A DNA stretch of 64,000 bases from Pristiophorus japonicus (taxonomy: Eukaryota): assembly GCF_044704955.1 (NCBI RefSeq), contig NC_091984.1, positions 148,490,001 through 148,554,000 of the forward strand. Direction: 5' to 3'. Each line of letters starts with the position of its first letter. The stretch's first letter is position 1. Under the pieces are notes generated by a model. It saw nothing but the letters and a program-made list of their open reading frames with translations. It had not been told where the DNA came from and did not search any database. Made by a program: the position numbers and the translations under genes. Positions 51,868-62,414 of the stretch are shown in pieces.

Positions 51868-52582
51868 GGAGTAATGGGCAGTCCCTCAGTGTGTCCGTGT
51901 CGCATTCGATGGGAGTAATGGGCAGTCATTCAGTGTGTCCGTGTCCCATTCGATGGGAGTAATGGGCAGTCCCTCATTGTGTCCATGTCCCATTCGATGG
52001 GAGTAATGGGCAGTCTCTCAGTGTGTCCATGTCCCATTCGATGGGAGTAATGGGCAGTCTCTCAGTGTGTCCGTGTCCCATTCGATGGGAGTAATGGGCA
52101 GTCCCTCAGTGTGTCCATGTCCCATTCGATGGGAGTAATGGGCAGTCCCTCAGTGTGGCTGTGTCTCATTCAATGGGAGTAATGGGCAGTCCCTTAGTGT
52201 GTCCATGTCCCATTCAATGGGAGTAATGGGCAGTCCCTCAGTGTGGCTGTGTCTCATTCAATGGGAGTAATGGGCAGTCCCTTAGTGTGTCCATGTCCCA
52301 TTCAATGGGAGTAATGGGCAGTCCCTCAGTGTGGCTGTGTCTCATTCAATGGGAGTAATGGGCAGTCCCTCAGTGTGTCCGTGTCCCATTCGATGGGAGT
52401 AATGGGCAGTCCCTCAGTGTGTCCGTGTCCCATTCGATGGGAGTAATGGGCAGTCCCTCAGTGTGTCCGTGTCCCATTCGATGGGAGTAATGGGCAGTCC
52501 CTCAGTGTGTCCGTGTCCCATTCGATGGGAGTAATGGGCAGTCCCTCAGCGTGTCCATGTCCCATTCGATGGGAGGAATGGC
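51868..52582. repeat. 44-bp minisatellite (GGGAGTAATGGGCAGTCCCTCAGTGTGTCCGTGTCCCATTCGAT), about 16 copies
   Basis: Period 44 (e.g. 51911 and 51955). No unique spacers. Confidence 0.97.
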
Positions 52583-53499
52583 CGTAGATGTTCTTCTCCT
52601 CTCCTGATCAACCAGCTAGACAGTTAATCAGTCGAATGCAAAACTGGAGACTTCATGTGTGCTGATGTTCCTGTTTCTGAGTCTGTTCTCGCAAAGTTCT
52701 CACGGTCTGAAGGCCACTATTTCTCTTACCTGTGAAACACAGCTTTCGAAGTAGCTCAACCACAGGACAGCTTGCAGCGTTCAGCAGCTTTAATGGACAT
52801 TTGTGCAGCAGAAAGTCCTGTTGGCCTCGCGAGGCATGCTGGTACATAAAATCTGGTCAAGTTACAGCAAACTTGTACAAAATCTTACCCCACTCAGTTG
52901 TACCAAACCGCTATTAAAAAAAGGAACAGCGGTTCTTCTCAAGGGCAATTAGGGATGGGCAATAAATGCTGGCCTTTCCGGTGATGCCCACATCGCAGGA
53001 ACAAATAAAAAAAATAAACGGGACAGTGGCAGTGTCGAGGAAATTTCTAAGTTAATTAACTCAGGCGGAGGCTTTCAGAGTCGTGCTTCGAGAGAATTTT
53101 ATTTTAAAAAGCGAAATATCTCGGAGAGCCTGCTTGGACCGTACCAAGGCAGAAAACTCTCCTGTACAAGCAAATTGTCCCTATCTTTATACAGAAATAG
53201 AATACAGAAATAGAAAAGGAATCTTATTCATTAGTTCCGTGAGTACAAAGGTCATCTCGGGAGGCACACACTCTATCTGTCCTTGCATAGTTTCTCCCTG
53301 TTCACAGTCTGATAAGCAGAGTATCAGGAGACTCCCTTTTAATACCGGATAGTCATTTAATTACATTTCTAAGTTTTAAGGCTAAAAAGTGTGGGTGTTG
53401 TTCTAGTCCTATTATTTCTTCAAATATAGCAAAAACAGAATTTAATCCTTCCCTTTACCATAAGCCATGGATTCATAGATTCTTTCTTCCACAATTCCC

Positions 53500-55605
53500 T
53501 TCTTGTTGATTTTTTTTTCAGATCAACACAATTTCCTATATTCTCTTCTTGCTCAAAAGGGGGTTCATACCCTTCAGGATAGGGTCGCATTTTGAGATAT
53601 TCGTCTTCATCAACCTTTTCCTCTAAGCAACTTAACCTTCCTTTCATGCACACACTTTTCCTTTCTATTTCGGAGATCAGGCCTATTACTTGACTAATTA
53701 CATTTTTTTATTTTATCCACATTCCGCAAAGGATTATTAATAATACAAGCATAACCACACCTACGATTACTATGGGGTGTATAGCAAGCTTCAGTACTGC
53801 TGTAGCTTTTGGGGACCATCCGGTAAACACATCCCACCAGTGGTGTACTGTCAAAGAGGTGACTTCGTCTACAATTCTTACTAGTTGCCCCTTCTTGTAA
53901 CTCATTTTGACTCTAAATTGGTGGATGTTTCTGCCTTGCTTTGACAGAGCTTCCTCAATTTTCTTGTCATTCCGTATCAAATTGTGCAGTCTGGTCAGAT
54001 TAATTACAGGGGGTAAGGGTTCAATCTTGTGCATAGACAGATATTTTTCTACATTTTGCCATTGCCCAAAGGTAATTTACTTCAGGGTCATACAGGGAGT
54101 AGACTCTTCTCACGCATTTATTAATGGGGGGTTTATACAAAATTCCATCCAGATAGACAGGTTTATTTCCTGTCACACAGACCTCATTCTGTCCTATTTC
54201 CGTAATATCAGTGTCATTTGTTGGCTTTAATTCCCATTTACATACTCCAATGGAGTGCTACAGTGAGCATGGTTCGTATATGGCGGTCTGATAGGGACAT
54301 ACCATTCCGAATGGCCACCTAGCACATCCCCTCTGGTGATGTGTCATATTCTTCTCATCGACCCAATCTCCTTTAAATTCTGGGTACCAGAAGTTCTGTC
54401 CAAACAGTTGGGGCATTACTTGGAACTGACACCAAATTTCTTTTCGTGTCTTACTTACTATCTCCACAGTAACTTTACATCCTTTTGAATTACAACTGGT
54501 ATATCTTTTTTTTGAGGGTTAATGGTTAAATTAAGAAGCTTATCCCTTTTGTTAATTTCCAGCAACCTTTCCCATGTGTTAGCATGGAAGGATAATATTT
54601 TCCTTTCTAACTCGGCTCTTAATAGCTGTCTGATCATTTCTTTAAACAGGCAATGGGTGTACTTGTTACTCCCTGTTGTTCCTTTATTAGGTTCTCTATT
54701 TCCTTCTCTACCCTTTCATTCTGTTCCCAGGTCATTTTGTTTATGACGTAACCTGATATTTGTAATTGCTGTAATCCTTCATCCCAGGCATTTCTGATTT
54801 TTATATCTTCCCCTACCAGTCCTCCGACGGCCTGGATTTTATTTTGTAGGGTCTCAATATCCATGGAGTTCAATGCTCCTATTGCTGCTCCCACTCCACC
54901 TAACACAGTCTCTAATACATCCCGTTTCTTTCTTTGGGGTCTTTCTTTTTCAAAAGATACCTTAACACTGGTTGTGTGGCAACCATCTTCTTTCTTTGGA
55001 GGATATTTAATTCGTATTGTTAGATTTAATACACCTGGGGATCTTACCACTGGGATGCAAGTGGTCAGTATCCTTTTTAGATGTCCCGGGTCCCGGTCTT
55101 CTGGGTGGCCAGATTCTTTTACTGACCATTTTACCACGAATGGGTCTCCTCCATTCACCGGGGTGTTATTCATGCACAACATCCGCTGCCCTTCTACCAT
55201 ACTTGTAAATGAATAATGGAGGAAGTCTTTTCTCTCGTCCGGCCCTCCTATGTACCCCCATCTCTTGTTTTTCCTCGTGCTGTGGGTACACTTCATCCAC
55301 ACATCGGCCTGGTATTCTATGAACAACTGATACCCTTTCCCCAATATAAACTGGAATTCCCCTCTTTCTTCTTTCATTCCACACGCCTCACATCGTGTCG
55401 TAAAGTTCCCTACTTTACAACTTTGGCCTACTGTGCATATAAAATTGCCTTGTTGCCTTGCACTATTACTTCTTTCCCATACCATATTTCCCTTCCATAC
55501 TCTTCCTTCTTTTAGAACTTCTTCCTCCTGCCGGGAGTTCCCTGACGCTAAAATGATCAGTATACCTAACGTCCATTTATAATTTTTCCAAGAGTCCCTT
55601 CCCAT
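53500..55605 (-). pseudogene. env: ERV env (frameshifted after about codon 320)
   Basis: Signal peptide WTLGILIILASG, furin site RKKR (54922-54933), fusion peptide DVLETVLGGVGAAIGALN and TM anchor PIVIVGVVMLVLLIILCGMW. Confidence 0.88.
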
Positions 55606-55732
55606 CTTCCCTTTCTTGTTTGTTTCTATACCACTCTTGAATTAAGTCGTTACAATAACAACACGTCCACACGATAGTAACAGTGGCCCAAATAATAAAG
55701 GCCCAAACTGGCACACAAATGAGCTCTGACAT
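55577..55732 (-). CDS. Putative 51-aa single-pass membrane accessory protein, overlapping the env start
   Basis: Hand translation gives MSELICVPVWAFIIWATVTIVWTCCYCNDLIQEWYRNKQEREDGKGLLEKL*. It is below the ORF-track length cutoff. Confidence 0.6.
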   Translation of the reverse strand: MSELICVPVWAFIIWATVTIVWTCCYCNDLIQEWYRNKQEREDGKGLLEKL

Positions 55733-55830
55733 CCGTTCCTGAACTTTTGGGCAGTACTTTCAAGTCCAAATATTTAATTTAATGCAAGAGCAGGTACAGT
55801 TCTTCAGCGAGAAGATGGCCTTTTTCTTAG

Positions 55831-58800
55831 TCAGGCAATCGTAGTACGTCCTGTTTCGATGCCTTTTCTTTTGGCTGTATTTCGTCGGGAAAATAATTTA
55901 CAATGGGTTGCATGCACCCAATTTGGATGCTTTTCCAACTTCCGCGCAGTTCGTGTTGTGAGAATTATCTGATATGGTCCTTTCCACCTAGGAGAAAAGG
56001 ATTCTTTGTTTAATGTTTTTACCAGCAGTTGATCTCCAGGCCTGAAAGGGTGCATATTTCCTTCCGACGGGGGCACCTGTGTCTGCTTTATCTGTTCATG
56101 CAGACTCCTTGCTATTTCACACATGGCCTGAGCATACTTTAGTGATTTTTCATCATTCCAAATTAATGCTATTTTTTCAGCTGCCAGTGGTGGTTTTACG
56201 CCAGTAGGCATTGGTCTTCCCAATAAGGCTTCATGTGGTGTCAAACCAGTGTTTCGGTTTTTCTGGTTTCTCATTGTATACAATACCAATGGTAAGGCAT
56301 CTGGCCACTTTAGTCCAGTCTCCTGGCATACCTTGGTAAGGGTAGATTTTATTATCCCATTTACTCTTTCTACCATTCCCGAGGACTGTGGCTGATATGG
56401 TATATGTAACTTCCACTGGAAACCTAACGCTTCTGCAAGATTTTGCACTATTTTTCCGGTGAAGTGTGTTCCCCTGTCACTGTTGATTCCCATAGGTATC
56501 CCATATCTTGGTACTATTTCTTTAAATAGAATTTTTACTACTATTTGGACATCGTCTCTCCTAGTGGCGTACGCTTCTACCCACCTTGTGAACATGTCTA
56601 TTATGACTAATAGGTACTTAAGACCTGATACTGGAGGCGTGTGGATAAAATCAATTTGCAAATTTTCAAAGGGCATACTTGGCTGGGGTAGATGATCATA
56701 TTCAGCAGGTGTTTTACCTCTGTTATTTTGTTGACAAATTTGGCATGTTCTAGCAACTTTCTCAATTACTACTGTTATTCCTGGTGCATACCACTGTGCA
56801 TTAATAGCATGTATCATCCCTCCTTTGCCCAATTGAGCCTGACCGTGTGCTAGGCGAGACAGGGGCAAAAATAGAGATTTAGGGCAAACAGTTCGCCCAT
56901 CAGGGTGACACCAGATGTCGTTTTTGAGAAAACAACCCTGGTTTTCCCAAGTTCTTCCTTCCTGCATGGTAACTTGTTGTTGGGCTGTTTTAAGTTGTTG
57001 GATGTCAAGTACCTGTGGAGGGGAGACTGAGACTGCTTGAAGGCAGTCTGCCTGTGCCGAAGCGGCCTGTTTGGCTGCCTCGTCAGCCCTCCTATTTCCT
57101 ACTGATACTTCATCCTCACCGGTTGTGTGAGCTGCACATTTGATGACGGCTACCTTACTTGGCAACTGAATGGCATCTAATAGATTAAGCACCAGTTGAG
57201 AGTGCTTAATATGCTTTCCATCAGAGGTGATAAAGCCTCTGTTTTTCCACAGTTGTCCAAAATCATGGACCACACCAAATGCATATCTGGAATCAGTATA
57301 GATATTAGCAGTATGATCTTTAGCTATTATACAAGCTCTAGTGAGGGCAAACAATTCAGCAGCCTGAGCCGAGGTTCCGGGAGGCAGGGCGAATGCTTCA
57401 ACAGTTTCGTGGGGATTTACAATAGCATAGCCTGCCAACAGCAAGTCATCCGACGGCCTATGTGATGATCCATCCGTATAGAGAATAAGATCAGGATTGT
57501 CCATGTGCTCTGTGAGCAAATCTGGTCTTGGTAAGGTGGCTATTTCCACTGTTAACAGACAATCATGCTGGTCTGGATCCTCTATTCTTTAGTAGGAAGA
57601 AAGGTGGCTGGGTTTACTACCGGTGCGCGTCGAAAGGTATAGTTAGGGTGTGACAGCAGTAATACTTCATAACCTGTTCTTCTAGACGCTGTAAAGTGTT
57701 GTGTGGCAGCTGAATTCAAAAGTAATAACACAGCATGGGCTGTAATGACAGCACATAGATAATCCAAAACAATAGGTACCGACTTCTCCACCATGACTGC
57801 AGTAGCAGCTACAGCACGTAGACATGCTGGCATTCCCCTTACTACTGGAGGCAGCAAAACCGAATAATAAGCAACTGGTCTATTTCCCCCACCATGTTCG
57901 TGGGTTAGTACTGCGGTTGCAAATCCTTCTTTCTCATTCACATACATCTGAAAAGGTTTACCATAATTCGGAAGTCCCAACGCCGGAGCATTAGTAATGG
58001 CCTTCTTTAACTGTTTAAATGCCTCCTCTCTCTCTGGGGTCCACTCCACCTTGGGTGGGGCATCATTTAGGGCAGCTGATCTTAGGACCGCATCCCATTC
58101 TCGATAATCGGGGATCCATTGTCTACAGTACCCAACCATCCCCAAAAATGACAAGATATCCTTCTTTGTCTTTGGTATGGGGGCACTTTGAATTGTCTGA
58201 ATTCTTTCTGGTCCTAACTGCCTCTGCCCTTGAGATATGTGAAAACCCAGGTACTGGACTTGAGTCTGACAAAATTGTAACTTTGGTAACGACACTCGGT
58301 GCCCTCTTTCACATAGGTTCTGTAACAGTTTTAGGGAGTCTTGTACGCACCTGTATCCGTGGCTAGAAGCCACAAGCAAATCGTCCGCATACTGCAACAG
58401 CACAGACTGGTCTGATAATGAACAGTCGTCAAGGTCTCTTTTTACTGCTGCTGCATATACTGCGGGGCTTTCGGTGTATCCTTGGGGCAATCTGGTCCAT
58501 GTGTACTGCTGCTTTTGTGGGTGAAAGCAAACAGATACTGACTTTCTTGATTTAAGGGATGGAGAAAAAAGCTGAACACAGGTCTATCACAGTAAAGACA
58601 GTTGCTGTTGGTGGTATAGCAGATAGTATAATGTTGGTGTCCGGTACCACAGGGGTGATAGGGACTACTATCTTATTAATAGCTCTCAGATCTTGCACAA
58701 ATCTCCATTCATTCGGCCTATTAACCTTTGGTATGGGCAGTATCGGAGTGTTACACGGGCTCTGTGTCTTTTTTAAAACTCCTTGTTCCAACAATGCAGA

Positions 58801-59985
58801 AATGACTGGCTCTATCCCATTTTCTGCCTCTGGAGGCAGTCTGTACTGTCTAATGCTTGGTAACACGGTGTTCTTTATCAATTGTACCCGATGGGGTACT
58901 GCAGAATGTACTTGCCCAACATGATTCTTATGCTTTGCCCAAAGTTCAGAAGATACTTGATTCAATGCCATTGGCAGCTTAGGGCTTGGTTGTTCCGGGG
59001 GTTGCTGTTTTTCAAAAGTGGAGGCGTGATTTTTACCTTTCCACTGGAGAATCCCCCTGTTGTGGGTGATGAAGTCTATCTGAACATTTTGCAGTTTTAT
59101 TACTGCCCAAGGTTGATAGCCTTGTTGCTGTTTTTCTTTTTCTATTCCTACAATCATCGGACCCATATCTTTTGTTTTCGCTGGCGGTTTTGTAGCCAAT
59201 GTCAGATGGGGTGTCGAGTTCGCTTCTCTATACCGCTGCTGCTGTAAGGGTGTCAAATCCATGGCTACCCCCAATCCTTCTGGTCCAAAATAAATGTGGG
59301 GCGTAGCTTCTACTATTTCTTCTTTTTTTAAAAAGGATTGTACCAAACACTGGTAAGTTTCAGCTTTTTGCCGAGTGTACCAGGCTGTACAATGAAGCTG
59401 AACTGCCTGAATGCTTGTCAAAATTATATACATCAATTCTTCAGTATTAGGGTCGATTTTAGCTTTTAAATTTTGTATAACTTCATGTATCAAAGGAGAG
59501 TAGAAGTTGCCATTCAATTGCCAACAATAGAGGGCAGCCTTTTCTTTGTTATCCTCCCTTTTCTCTTCTTTAATCCCATTAAACAACTGATGAATTTTAT
59601 TTGGAGGGAGCTCCATGTACATTCCTTCCTTTGTGCAATAAATTGTGGCTCCTAGTTTGCACAAAGTCTGTCTTCCCAATAAAGGGAGAGGTGTTGTTTT
59701 AGAGACTATCAAAGTCTCATCATTAACTGGTTGTCCTTCAATTATCAATTTGGTAGGTTCAGATAAAAATTCTTTCATGGGGCTACCGGCCACACCCATA
59801 CTTAAGACGGTGGTGTTGCTTACAGGTAATCCCACAGAGGATGGTACAGAAGACATAGTAGCACCGGTATCCACCAGGAATTTCACATAAGTGTCTCCTA
59901 CTTTTACTACTGCCAAAGGGTTTTCTTCGATGTCTGCTGATAAGTGGAGGGCTGCCGCCTGTACCACTAAGCCTCCAGGGCATCC
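55831..59985 (-). pseudogene. pol: ERV pro-pol, in frame after the gag amber codon; three 1-nt frameshifts
   Basis: FLVDTGA, QDLRAIN, LPQGYTESP, LQYADDLL, RNaseH YTDGSS/SAQAAEL, integrase HHCC plus QIDF/SDRG/SGMVER and WKGPY. Confidence 0.95.
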
Positions 59986-61631
59986 CTATGCTGATTGGTG
60001 CGGGTTGGGGTTAGAGAACGAAAACTGAGGGACCAATGAAGGTGGAGGTTTGGGGAAATCCCCTTGTAACACTCCACCCTGTTTCGGGGGGCATCTGCAA
60101 TCGCGAGCCCAATGCCCTTTCCTTCCACAATTTCTACACTCATCTTGGGAGCGGTCTCGTTGGGGCCACTGTCCTCTCCCTCTTCCTCGTCCTCGTCCCC
60201 CAAACCCTCCTCTATTATTCTGTGCTTGTCCTCTTCCCTTTTGCTGATAGTACTGACCTGCTGTTTTAGCCTTATTTTCCTTATAGGTGAATAGTCCCTC
60301 CCTATCCATGTTGGCCAAGACTGTAATTGTTTCCTTCCAACTTTTTTCTTGCCAGTCCAAAACCTTAATTTTATAGGTTCTCGCGTGTTGCGGCAACATA
60401 CAATTTAACAAGGTTTGCACTGCCAAAGGTTCATTTTGATCCATTGGTATTGGTGCATGCTCGTCTCAACTATTTTTCCATCTGCCTGCAAAATCTATTA
60501 TTGATTCTTCTGCTTTCTGCAGACAGCGCGTGACTTCCCCTATATCTCCATGCTTTTTAGCTCCCTATAGTATGGCATCCTTGCCCCTGTGCTGCAACCA
60601 ATGTTCCCGGGACTCATTTCCTTCTTCCTCATTATCTTCCCGCCAATCTCCGTTTTCGCCGGCGGTACAGGGAACATATCTTTTACCCCCTGCCAAGAGG
60701 ACCCATATGCTGCCTCCAGTAATAATTTCACATCTCCGGGGAGGGGGTTATAAATGGTACAGGTTTGCTCAAGCCAGTTATGAAAGGTTACTGGCTTCTT
60801 AACAGGATTAGGGGTGGCTGATATCATATCCCGAGCTTCCAGGGCTTTAGGACAGCCGTGGTTCCAATCATTACACGGGGGGCTTGTGTCGTGGGGGTAG
60901 TGGTGGAATCGGCCTGTCTTATGGTATTCCTGGTATTCATTCCAGGGTCAGGGTTGGGGTTTTCGCCTTCGGCTCCTCCACTTGCCCCTCCTTCCCCGTT
61001 TTCATCCTCTGGTGGGTTCTGGGGTCGTGGTTGCATTCGTCGCCTAGAGGCCTGATCTAGCTGGGCAGCCACTATTTCTATGATCTCCTGCCAATCATCC
61101 GGCTTGGTGGTTGGAAGACGGGGATATAAGCCGACAGGGGAAGCGGTCATAACTGGGGCTCTCGGGGGGGCTGTAAGAGGGAGGGGGCTTCTCCTTACCC
61201 TCCTCCTCTTTCTTTTTATTTTTAGGGGGCTGGTGCCTTTTTGCCACCTCTGTCCATTTTTTAAAACAATTCTCCATATAATCTTTATCCCAAGTGGGGT
61301 CCCCCGCCCCATCTTTGGTGGTCTGTCTCCATTCCTCAATTAAGGACAATTTAAAACTTCCTCCATATGGCCAATCCCCATCATACCAACCGTACAAATC
61401 GCTACTAAACGTTACCGCGTATCTGTCGTCTCCTGTTTCTTTAATTACAGTGTCTGCCGGCGAGCCGGGCGGCACAATAGGATCTCCTACCTTCTCTCGT
61501 TGCTTTGCTACCTTACGGATTCTTTTCTCAGTCTTAGGATGTACTTTCATTCTTTCAGTTGAGAGGTCGTCTTTCTTTCCTTTTCTAGGAGCTGGGCGCG
61601 AGCGCCCTGCTCGACTAGAGCCGTTTCCCAT
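59986..61631 (-). pseudogene. gag: ERV gag (frameshifted)
   Basis: MGNGSS myristoylation start at 61631, PPSY late domain, a single CRNCGRKGHWARDC knuckle, and a TAG stop. Confidence 0.9.
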
Positions 61632-62414
61632 TCTTCCGGGTGCAACGTCTCGCGATCTTTTCTGAAATGAGAGTTGGGACAATCCTACAAAATATACAAT
61701 AATTTACAAAGCGCTCAGCTCGGGGTCTCCTTTTGCCTTTTTGTTATTTTAGCTTCTTTGCGGTAGCTACCTTAAATTATGCCTCACCCTCCAGGGGATC
61801 TCGGCAGCTCGTCCCCCTTTCAGCTAGGACGGCCGAGGCACCTTCCTCCTTTCAGCTAGGAAGGTCCTTAAAATTCCTCTTTACTCTTTAAAAGTTAAAT
61901 TTAGTTCTTTTGGATCTCGTTTTTTAGAGATCCTGCCGGACTACGCCAGAATCTGTCGAGGAAATTTCTCAGTTAATTAACTCAGGCGGAGGCTTTCAGA
62001 GTCGTGCTTCGAGAGAATTTTATTTAAAAAAGCGAAATATCTCGGAGAGCCTGCTTGGACCGTACCAAGGCAGAAAACTCTCCTGTACAAGCAAATTGTC
62101 CCTATCTTTATACAGAAATAGAATACAGAAATAGAAAAGGAATCTTATTCATTAGTTCCGTGAGTACAAAGGTCGTCTCGGGAGGCACACACTCTATCTG
62201 TCCTTGCATAGTTTCTCCCTGTTCACAGTCTGATAAGCAGAATATCAGGAGACTCCCTTTTAATACCGGATAGTCATTTAATTACATTTCTAAGTTTTAA
62301 GGCTAAAAAGTGTGGGTGTTGTTCTAGTCCTATTATTTCTTCAAATATAGCAAAAACAGAATTTAACCCTTCCCTTTACCATAAGCCATGGATTCATAGA
62401 TTCTTTCTTCCACA

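Follow-up and report, generated by a model that had tools for sequence, protein, structure and literature searches.

The window analysed here, a 64,000-nt stretch of Pristiophorus japonicus DNA (NC_091984.1, positions 148,490,001 to 148,554,000), carries on its minus strand an endogenous retrovirus (ERV). A protein labelled with this species name is encoded in the genome without a differing letter, which supports a shark source. The coordinates of the provirus and its features are listed in Table 1. The best PDB matches of its pol are to the RNase H of MLV and XMRV, MLVIN_C is also matched, and in the ERV family gag is followed by an in-frame TAG and then by pol. The MLV-like pol together with the in-frame TAG points to a class I (gamma/epsilon-like) element, an assignment made from sequence features and at class level. 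All three major genes (gag, pol, and env) are broken in the window copy. Its pol is frameshifted near 55897, so that it stops 98 nt before the ATG of a small ORF (94 nt in most close copies). The leader splice donor is also deleted, and many other copies have it. Given these breaks and the lost donor the window copy is unlikely to express the small ORF, and the question is one for the family level. The two LTRs are near-identical in spite of this damage, and the provirus was therefore probably copied from an already defective template. A minisatellite (44-bp unit, 16 copies, 51868-52581) lies about 450 bp from the 3′ LTR.

Table 1. Coordinates of the provirus, the small ORF, and associated features in the 64,000-nt window.
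Feature	Position	Strand	Remarks
Provirus	53033-62414	minus	LTR pair; 5-bp target-site duplication GGCAG on both sides
5′ LTR, 461 bp	61954..62414	minus	5 mismatches to the 3′ LTR
Primer-binding site	61931..61948	minus	from sequence; presumably resembles the tRNA-Ser end
Major leader splice donor (place)	61710..61720	minus	30 leaders compared; deleted in window copy
Second splice donor inside gag, phase 0	61490..61491	minus	one X1 contig, 25 loose letters, 24/25 gag match by eye
RNase H-integrase part of pol	55831..57588	minus	frameshifted near its end in this copy
Env splice acceptor (candidate)	55987..56000	minus	inside integrase C-terminus; pyrimidine run and AG at 55989-55988, exon from 55987
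Weak upstream ATG inside integrase	55911..55913	minus	on spliced message; uORF of 19 codons in most copies, absent in sublineage F
Spacer, non-coding, pol stop to small ORF	55733..55830	minus	holds TTCAG
Small ORF, 156 nt, 51 aa	55577..55732	minus	predicted membrane helix and 29-residue charged tail
Predicted transmembrane helix, residues 4-22	55667..55723	minus	Kyte-Doolittle 2.2 (best 19-residue window)
Juxtamembrane CCYC, residues 24-27	55652..55663	minus	variable
IQ-like motif I-Q-x3-R-x4-R, residues 31-41	55610..55642	minus	candidate calmodulin binding
DxxxLL, acidic dileucine-like, residues 43-48	55589..55606	minus	inside env overlap
Env start and first open stretch, 323 aa	54634..55605	minus	env broken further down in window copy
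3′ LTR, 461 bp	53033..53493	minus

The original prediction had placed in the pol-env gap a hidden 51-aa membrane protein at a Vpu-like position, and the amino acid sequence and all coordinates given for it were confirmed. The gap from the pol stop to the env ATG is 225 nt, the small ORF overlaps the env ATG (55605) by 29 nt in another frame, the env frame has a TAA stop at 55644-55642, and a TTCAG is present as sequence at 55743-55739, 6 nt before the small-ORF ATG. The N-terminal hydrophobic helix that had been proposed was also recovered by prediction (Table 1). The structure model consists of one long helix with a mean pLDDT of 80 and about 90 in the membrane-helix part. The acidic four-residue N-terminus and the charged tail suggest an N-out, tail-in topology with no signal peptide. 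Four residues of the small protein (T17, T19, W10, and P8) are nearly invariant. Such conservation, together with the size, the one helix and the charged tail, would fit a small viral membrane protein of the viroporin type, in which the helix oligomerises into a pore, or a budding aid that helps particles leave the membrane; the helix, however, contains no charged or His residue in the lineage variants, and a fold search against viral models gave 0 matches. We consider a viroporin or budding role quite improbable.

Searches for relatives of the small protein were limited to protein lengths of about 27 to 90 residues. With a single query no homologue was found outside this genome, and with an 18-sequence alignment 24 candidates were returned, none with an E-value of 10 or better. 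The best ESM Atlas score was 0.79, a lead at most. Scans of viral and metagenome contigs yielded no usable locus in another species. Weak Pfam matches were obtained for one to four of 18 variants (WBP-1, MLANA, TMEM52, Hemotin, and Commissureless; best E-value 0.0023), whereas the window protein itself matches none of the five. The likeness to these cellular helix-plus-cysteine proteins is probably compositional and does not point to a captured host gene.

In the genome search we found 572 DNA candidates and 660 protein candidates for the ERV family, of which 40 and 150, respectively, were scored. The 51-aa frame is intact in 28 of the 30 best DNA matches. The small ORF recurs in five sublineages, with integrase dS of 0.23 to 1.52 between representatives; the diverged sublineages were found by env and integrase searches in which the small protein was not used as a query. 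The small-protein variants of sublineages C and D are 67 to 78% identical to the window protein. Sublineage F shares 87 of 126 nt with A over the small-ORF DNA and its open form is 66 aa long, so that the family ranges from 51 to 66 aa. Codons 1-42 align without gaps between lineage representatives, and in-frame indels were seen in copies L097, L123, and L151. Between lineages the spacer retains 48 to 72 identical nt of 90, in three to nine alignment blocks; the small-ORF ATG, its frame and the 127-nt spacing to the env ATG are kept while this adjoining spacer decays.

In all five lineages, and in each of the 30 top copies, the 127-nt spacing leaves the small ORF and env in different frames, in agreement with the earlier statement that the small ORF is not an env extension. 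This arrangement argues against the small ORF encoding the true N-terminus of Env, joined by frameshift or splicing. Two single copies (L019 and L047) do have the small ORF fused to env by deletions, but Env has its own hydrophobic leader and this leader is under selection (omega 0.43 to 0.45); we regard an Env N-terminus as extremely improbable. In family E, which has a related env and a different pol, the small ORF is absent in nine of nine loci, and it is therefore a feature of this lineage rather than of the env class.

Selection on the reading frame was estimated with our own codon model, which fits separate rates to internal branches (shared changes) and terminal branches (mostly post-insertion decay). 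The set contained 90 distinct natural copies, up to 30 of them picked by DNA likeness to the small-ORF region; 20 copies picked by small-protein likeness, copies with gaps in codons 1-42 or other spacing, and duplicates were left out. Two trees, built on the same DNA of lineages that recombine, gave an internal-branch omega of 0.51 (p 0.007) and of 0.53 (p 0.009). The other two frames of this DNA gave omega of 1.1 to 1.3 and the integrase gave 0.07. Changes to stop had a rate of 0.09 on internal branches vs 0.96 to 0.98 on terminal branches (p 0.0005). The hydrophobic/polar exchange in codons 5-23, for which the hydrophobic class was chosen after sight of the sequence, had rates of 0.07 vs 0.99 (p 0.0005). 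Stops and hydrophobic-to-polar helix changes are thus depleted about tenfold on internal branches. Without sublineage F the omega was 0.56 to 0.59 with borderline p values (0.046 to 0.063). A count-based test gave omega 0.50 (binomial p 0.008), and the shared-vs-singleton comparison gave p 0.16. Conservation and dN/dS had been proposed as a check on the prediction, and the outcome was in its favor, the ORF being kept in five sublineages of this genome. As judged from these codon comparisons, the 51-codon frame and its hydrophobic helix are under purifying selection across A/B, C, D, and F. It is quite probable that the small ORF encodes a real, selected protein.

The decay of the ORF was counted in 103 copies picked without the small protein. 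The region is lacking in 22 and retained in 81. Of these 81 copies, 66 have an open frame over the first 51 codons of env. The small ORF is open in 51; the others comprise seven copies with a micro-inversion, seven with the stop of sublineage F, five without the ATG and 11 that are broken otherwise. The micro-inversion lies between short inverted repeats at the equivalents of about 55645-55680 and recurs in A/B and D backgrounds. It keeps the frame and removes the cysteines, and was found in eight loci (L119, L121, L138, L142, L149, L153, L162, and L188). By exact sequence patterns, the stop at codon 15 in sublineage F is common to 32 copies, and 57 copies are open there (89 in total). No shared stop was seen without sublineage F and one appears when F is included. 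This sublineage (L173-L186, L193-L212) arose in a very recent burst: its integrases are nearly identical, and many of its copies have env deletions. Env is uninterrupted in four of ten F stop copies vs one of ten F open copies sampled. Since env is open in some of the stop copies, the loss of the small ORF is not tied to env decay, and since the stop clade was amplified, the small protein was not needed for the recent germ-line burst. Interruption of the ORF in the family, which the original prediction had named as a ground for rejection, thus applies in part, in the recently amplified F clade.

A decay that exceeds that of the env start, the shared F stop, the micro-inversion that destroys the cysteines and the absence from family E would also be expected if the frame were open by chance, in DNA conserved for an RNA signal or splice enhancer and now drifting. 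The constraint, however, is specific to the small-ORF frame. The small-ORF region RNA has no unusual fold (z +0.68), and a search at this region for a stable RNA or DNA hairpin found none. In a neutral simulation the ATG and open frame survived across lineages in 0 of 4000 runs with integrase-derived branch lengths, in 0.4% with the divergence of the small-ORF stretch itself and in 4% with half that divergence. With neutral survival of 0.4 to 4% at best, we consider a chance frame very unlikely.

A search for a splice acceptor upstream of 55732 had been proposed, and joins upstream of this position were found in public sequencing runs. Related sequence is present in three runs of one study, of unrecorded kind (it may be DNA or come from another species); no run recorded as RNA was among those listed as carrying it. 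Two contigs of run X2 join the leader to 55988/55987, at a GT donor that is seen in many natural leaders. In one contig of run X1 the join to the same acceptor starts from a GT donor within gag; the overhangs are only 25 to 30 letters in both runs. The use of two donors at one acceptor argues for splicing, as far as runs of unrecorded kind and short overhangs allow. A search of this genome for the joined leader gave 0 exact matches, and the acceptor AG is present in 82 of 88 copies. The TTCAG before the small-ORF ATG does not appear to be the acceptor: among the matches listed no join goes to it, and an AG is found at its position in only 43 of 90 copies. It may act as a second acceptor. The gag-donor join is in phase and would link the first 47 Gag residues to a 29-codon frame, which has that length in 84 of 88 copies; a further small product or a cryptic splice is possible.

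On the spliced message an earlier ATG, mostly weak, lies between the acceptor and the small ORF in 80 of 88 copies. All 87 small-ORF start codons carry a pyrimidine at -3 and lack a G at +4, and all 90 env start codons carry an A at -3. The stretch between the two starts is free of out-of-frame ATGs in 81 of 90 copies. In terms of sequence context, a weak small-ORF start before a stronger env start is the vpu/env leaky-scanning layout. A start context kept weak in every copy would also suit a regulatory uORF that limits Env synthesis through its overlap with the env start, the peptide itself mattering little. The F stop clade fits this explanation in that it keeps the ATG with a frame cut to 14 codons and was still amplified to 32 copies, as does an omega of only about 0.5. 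Selection, however, concerns the character of the residues (hydrophobic/polar exchange 0.07) as well as openness, and the open F form runs to 66 aa, which means that the position of the stop is free while the helix is kept. A purely regulatory uORF is in our estimate unlikely.

The known examples of the vpu/env layout are primate lentiviruses. The same arrangement, with a weak vpu start before env, is described there (PMC2657110), and Vpu is described as a TM helix followed by cytoplasmic helices with an ExxxLV motif (PMC6770538). Like HIV-1 and SIV Vpu, the shark ORF is a small single-pass ORF upstream of env that overlaps it in another frame, and it resembles Vpu in having a predicted helix and a charged tail, likewise predicted to be helical, that carries an acidic dileucine-like motif (PMC6770538; PMC3315493). 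Both are dispensable in some settings. The shark ORF differs from Vpu in its length of 51 to 66 aa, in the juxtamembrane cysteines of most lineages and in its host virus, which is a class I (gamma/epsilon-like) fish element and not a lentivirus. No Vpu profile was found among Pfam matches up to E 10 for 18 variants or in the PDB sequence search, and the DSGxxS phosphodegron is absent in five of five lineage representatives. The likeness is therefore architectural and not one of homology, as was claimed at the outset. The best reading of the sequence is that the small protein is not a Vpu homologue and has a convergent Vpu-like layout.

Among fish retroviruses, the walleye orfs A, B, and C sit outside the pol-env junction. 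Snakehead retrovirus (SnRV; ORF1-3 and 3′ORF) and walleye epsilonretrovirus carry extra ORFs on subgenomic mRNAs, and SnRV ORF1 has 52 residues (PMC12193657). By its length, SnRV ORF1 is a possible fish precedent. A search of the literature, covering few subscription papers, brought up no description of the shark ORF and no fish retrovirus described as having a Vpu-like ORF between pol and env.

The cysteines after the helix had suggested a comparison with reovirus FAST proteins, which was not supported. FAST proteins are described as having about 100 to 200 aa and an ectodomain with a cystine noose or myristoylation (PMC12945298). A small membrane protein with a helix, then cysteines and some basic residues recalls p10 FAST (PMC12945298) and would fit a FAST-like cell-cell fusogen. 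The shark ORF, however, has 51 to 66 aa, a predicted ectodomain of three to four residues, no Gly2 as a myristoylation site, no cystine noose or other ectodomain fusion motif, and a net charge after the helix of only 0 to +3 across lineage representatives (a weak basic patch compared with FAST). The cysteines number two to three in lineages A-D and none in F, so that the cluster is not a feature of the whole family, and the virus already has Env. A fusogen of this kind is highly improbable. Palmitoylation of CCYC, where it is present, is possible from the sequence.

Two motifs in the tail could link the protein to host sorting or to calmodulin. The DxxxLL motif was put forward in the original prediction and is kept in open copies (D43 in 77 of 77, L47 in 75 of 77, and L48 in 77 of 77). 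The motif is within the overlap, and the A and T of the env start codon are part of the D43 codon, so the conservation of the motif is inseparable from the constraint on env; the presence of the motif stands and its conservation is confounded. The IQ-like motif was noticed after the fact. The pattern [FILV]Qxxx[RK], as defined in PMC12828991, is found in 77 of 77 open copies, with position 31 being I, V, or F only, and the second basic residue is present in 72 of 77. Tail shuffles match the pattern in 5.7% of cases and in 0.7% with the second basic residue. A full IQ motif is not present, as residues 37 and 44 are by column counts never Gly and a hydrophobic residue together. For residues 26-38 the amphipathic moment does not stand out from shuffles, 13 to 34% of which reach it. 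The best PDB sequence match of the small protein is the CaV1.2 IQ peptide, with an E-value of 0.25 that is not significant. A modelled complex of calmodulin and residues 22-51, for which the controls were not folded, scored 0.01 (mark 0.34) and counts neither way. Vpu is reported to bind Ca-calmodulin in vitro (PMC12828991). Binding of calmodulin by the IQ-like tail helix is best treated as a lead taken from the motif.

With respect to the upstream acceptor, the weak start and the selected helix, the proposed accessory protein with a Vpu-like arrangement is the reading that fits best; the parts concerning FAST, the cysteines as a family feature and TTCAG as the acceptor were not supported. By analogy with Vpu, we propose that the small protein may be an accessory membrane adaptor that is co-expressed with Env, re-routes a partner bound in the bilayer by means of its tail, and is dispensable in the germ line, and we see this as an evenly balanced prospect. 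Once a real, selected protein is granted, an adaptor or antagonist role becomes moderately likely. Leaky scanning on the singly spliced env message would be the likely route to translation of the small ORF. The predicted single-pass protein would then bind another membrane protein through its helix, and its tail would re-route the bound partner as HIV-1 Vpu does. Sorting could proceed via the acidic dileucine and possibly via calmodulin at the IQ-like helix. The benefit would fall in the infection of body cells, and germ-line copying would need no small protein. A more specific version, in which an independent Vpu design (a leaky-scanned antagonist with an IQ-like helix and a dileucine) acts against a cartilaginous-fish restriction factor and is kept while the virus spreads by infection and dropped by a germ-line-copying clade, is doubtful on present evidence.

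The usual description of class I retroviruses is that of simple viruses in which accessory genes are few (PMC9967133, on gamma-type Env viruses). A selected small membrane ORF at this position in a shark element would mean that the vpu/env layout can arise by convergence and that accessory genes of about 50 codons go unnoticed in ERV annotation. It could also serve to probe antiviral defence at the membrane in cartilaginous fish. Natural copies of the family differ in whether they have the cysteines and whether the frame is open, so the question is directly testable by expression.

The env class of this family matched no Pfam family. The env-class relatives (P0003-P0053) are labelled as frogs, bichir, basking shark, turtle, koala, and marmoset, and P0003, a Heterodontus env, is 40% identical. 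In family E (L101-L108, L111) the related env stands on a quite different integrase and starts right after pol, an arrangement that suggests exchange of env between retroviral classes.
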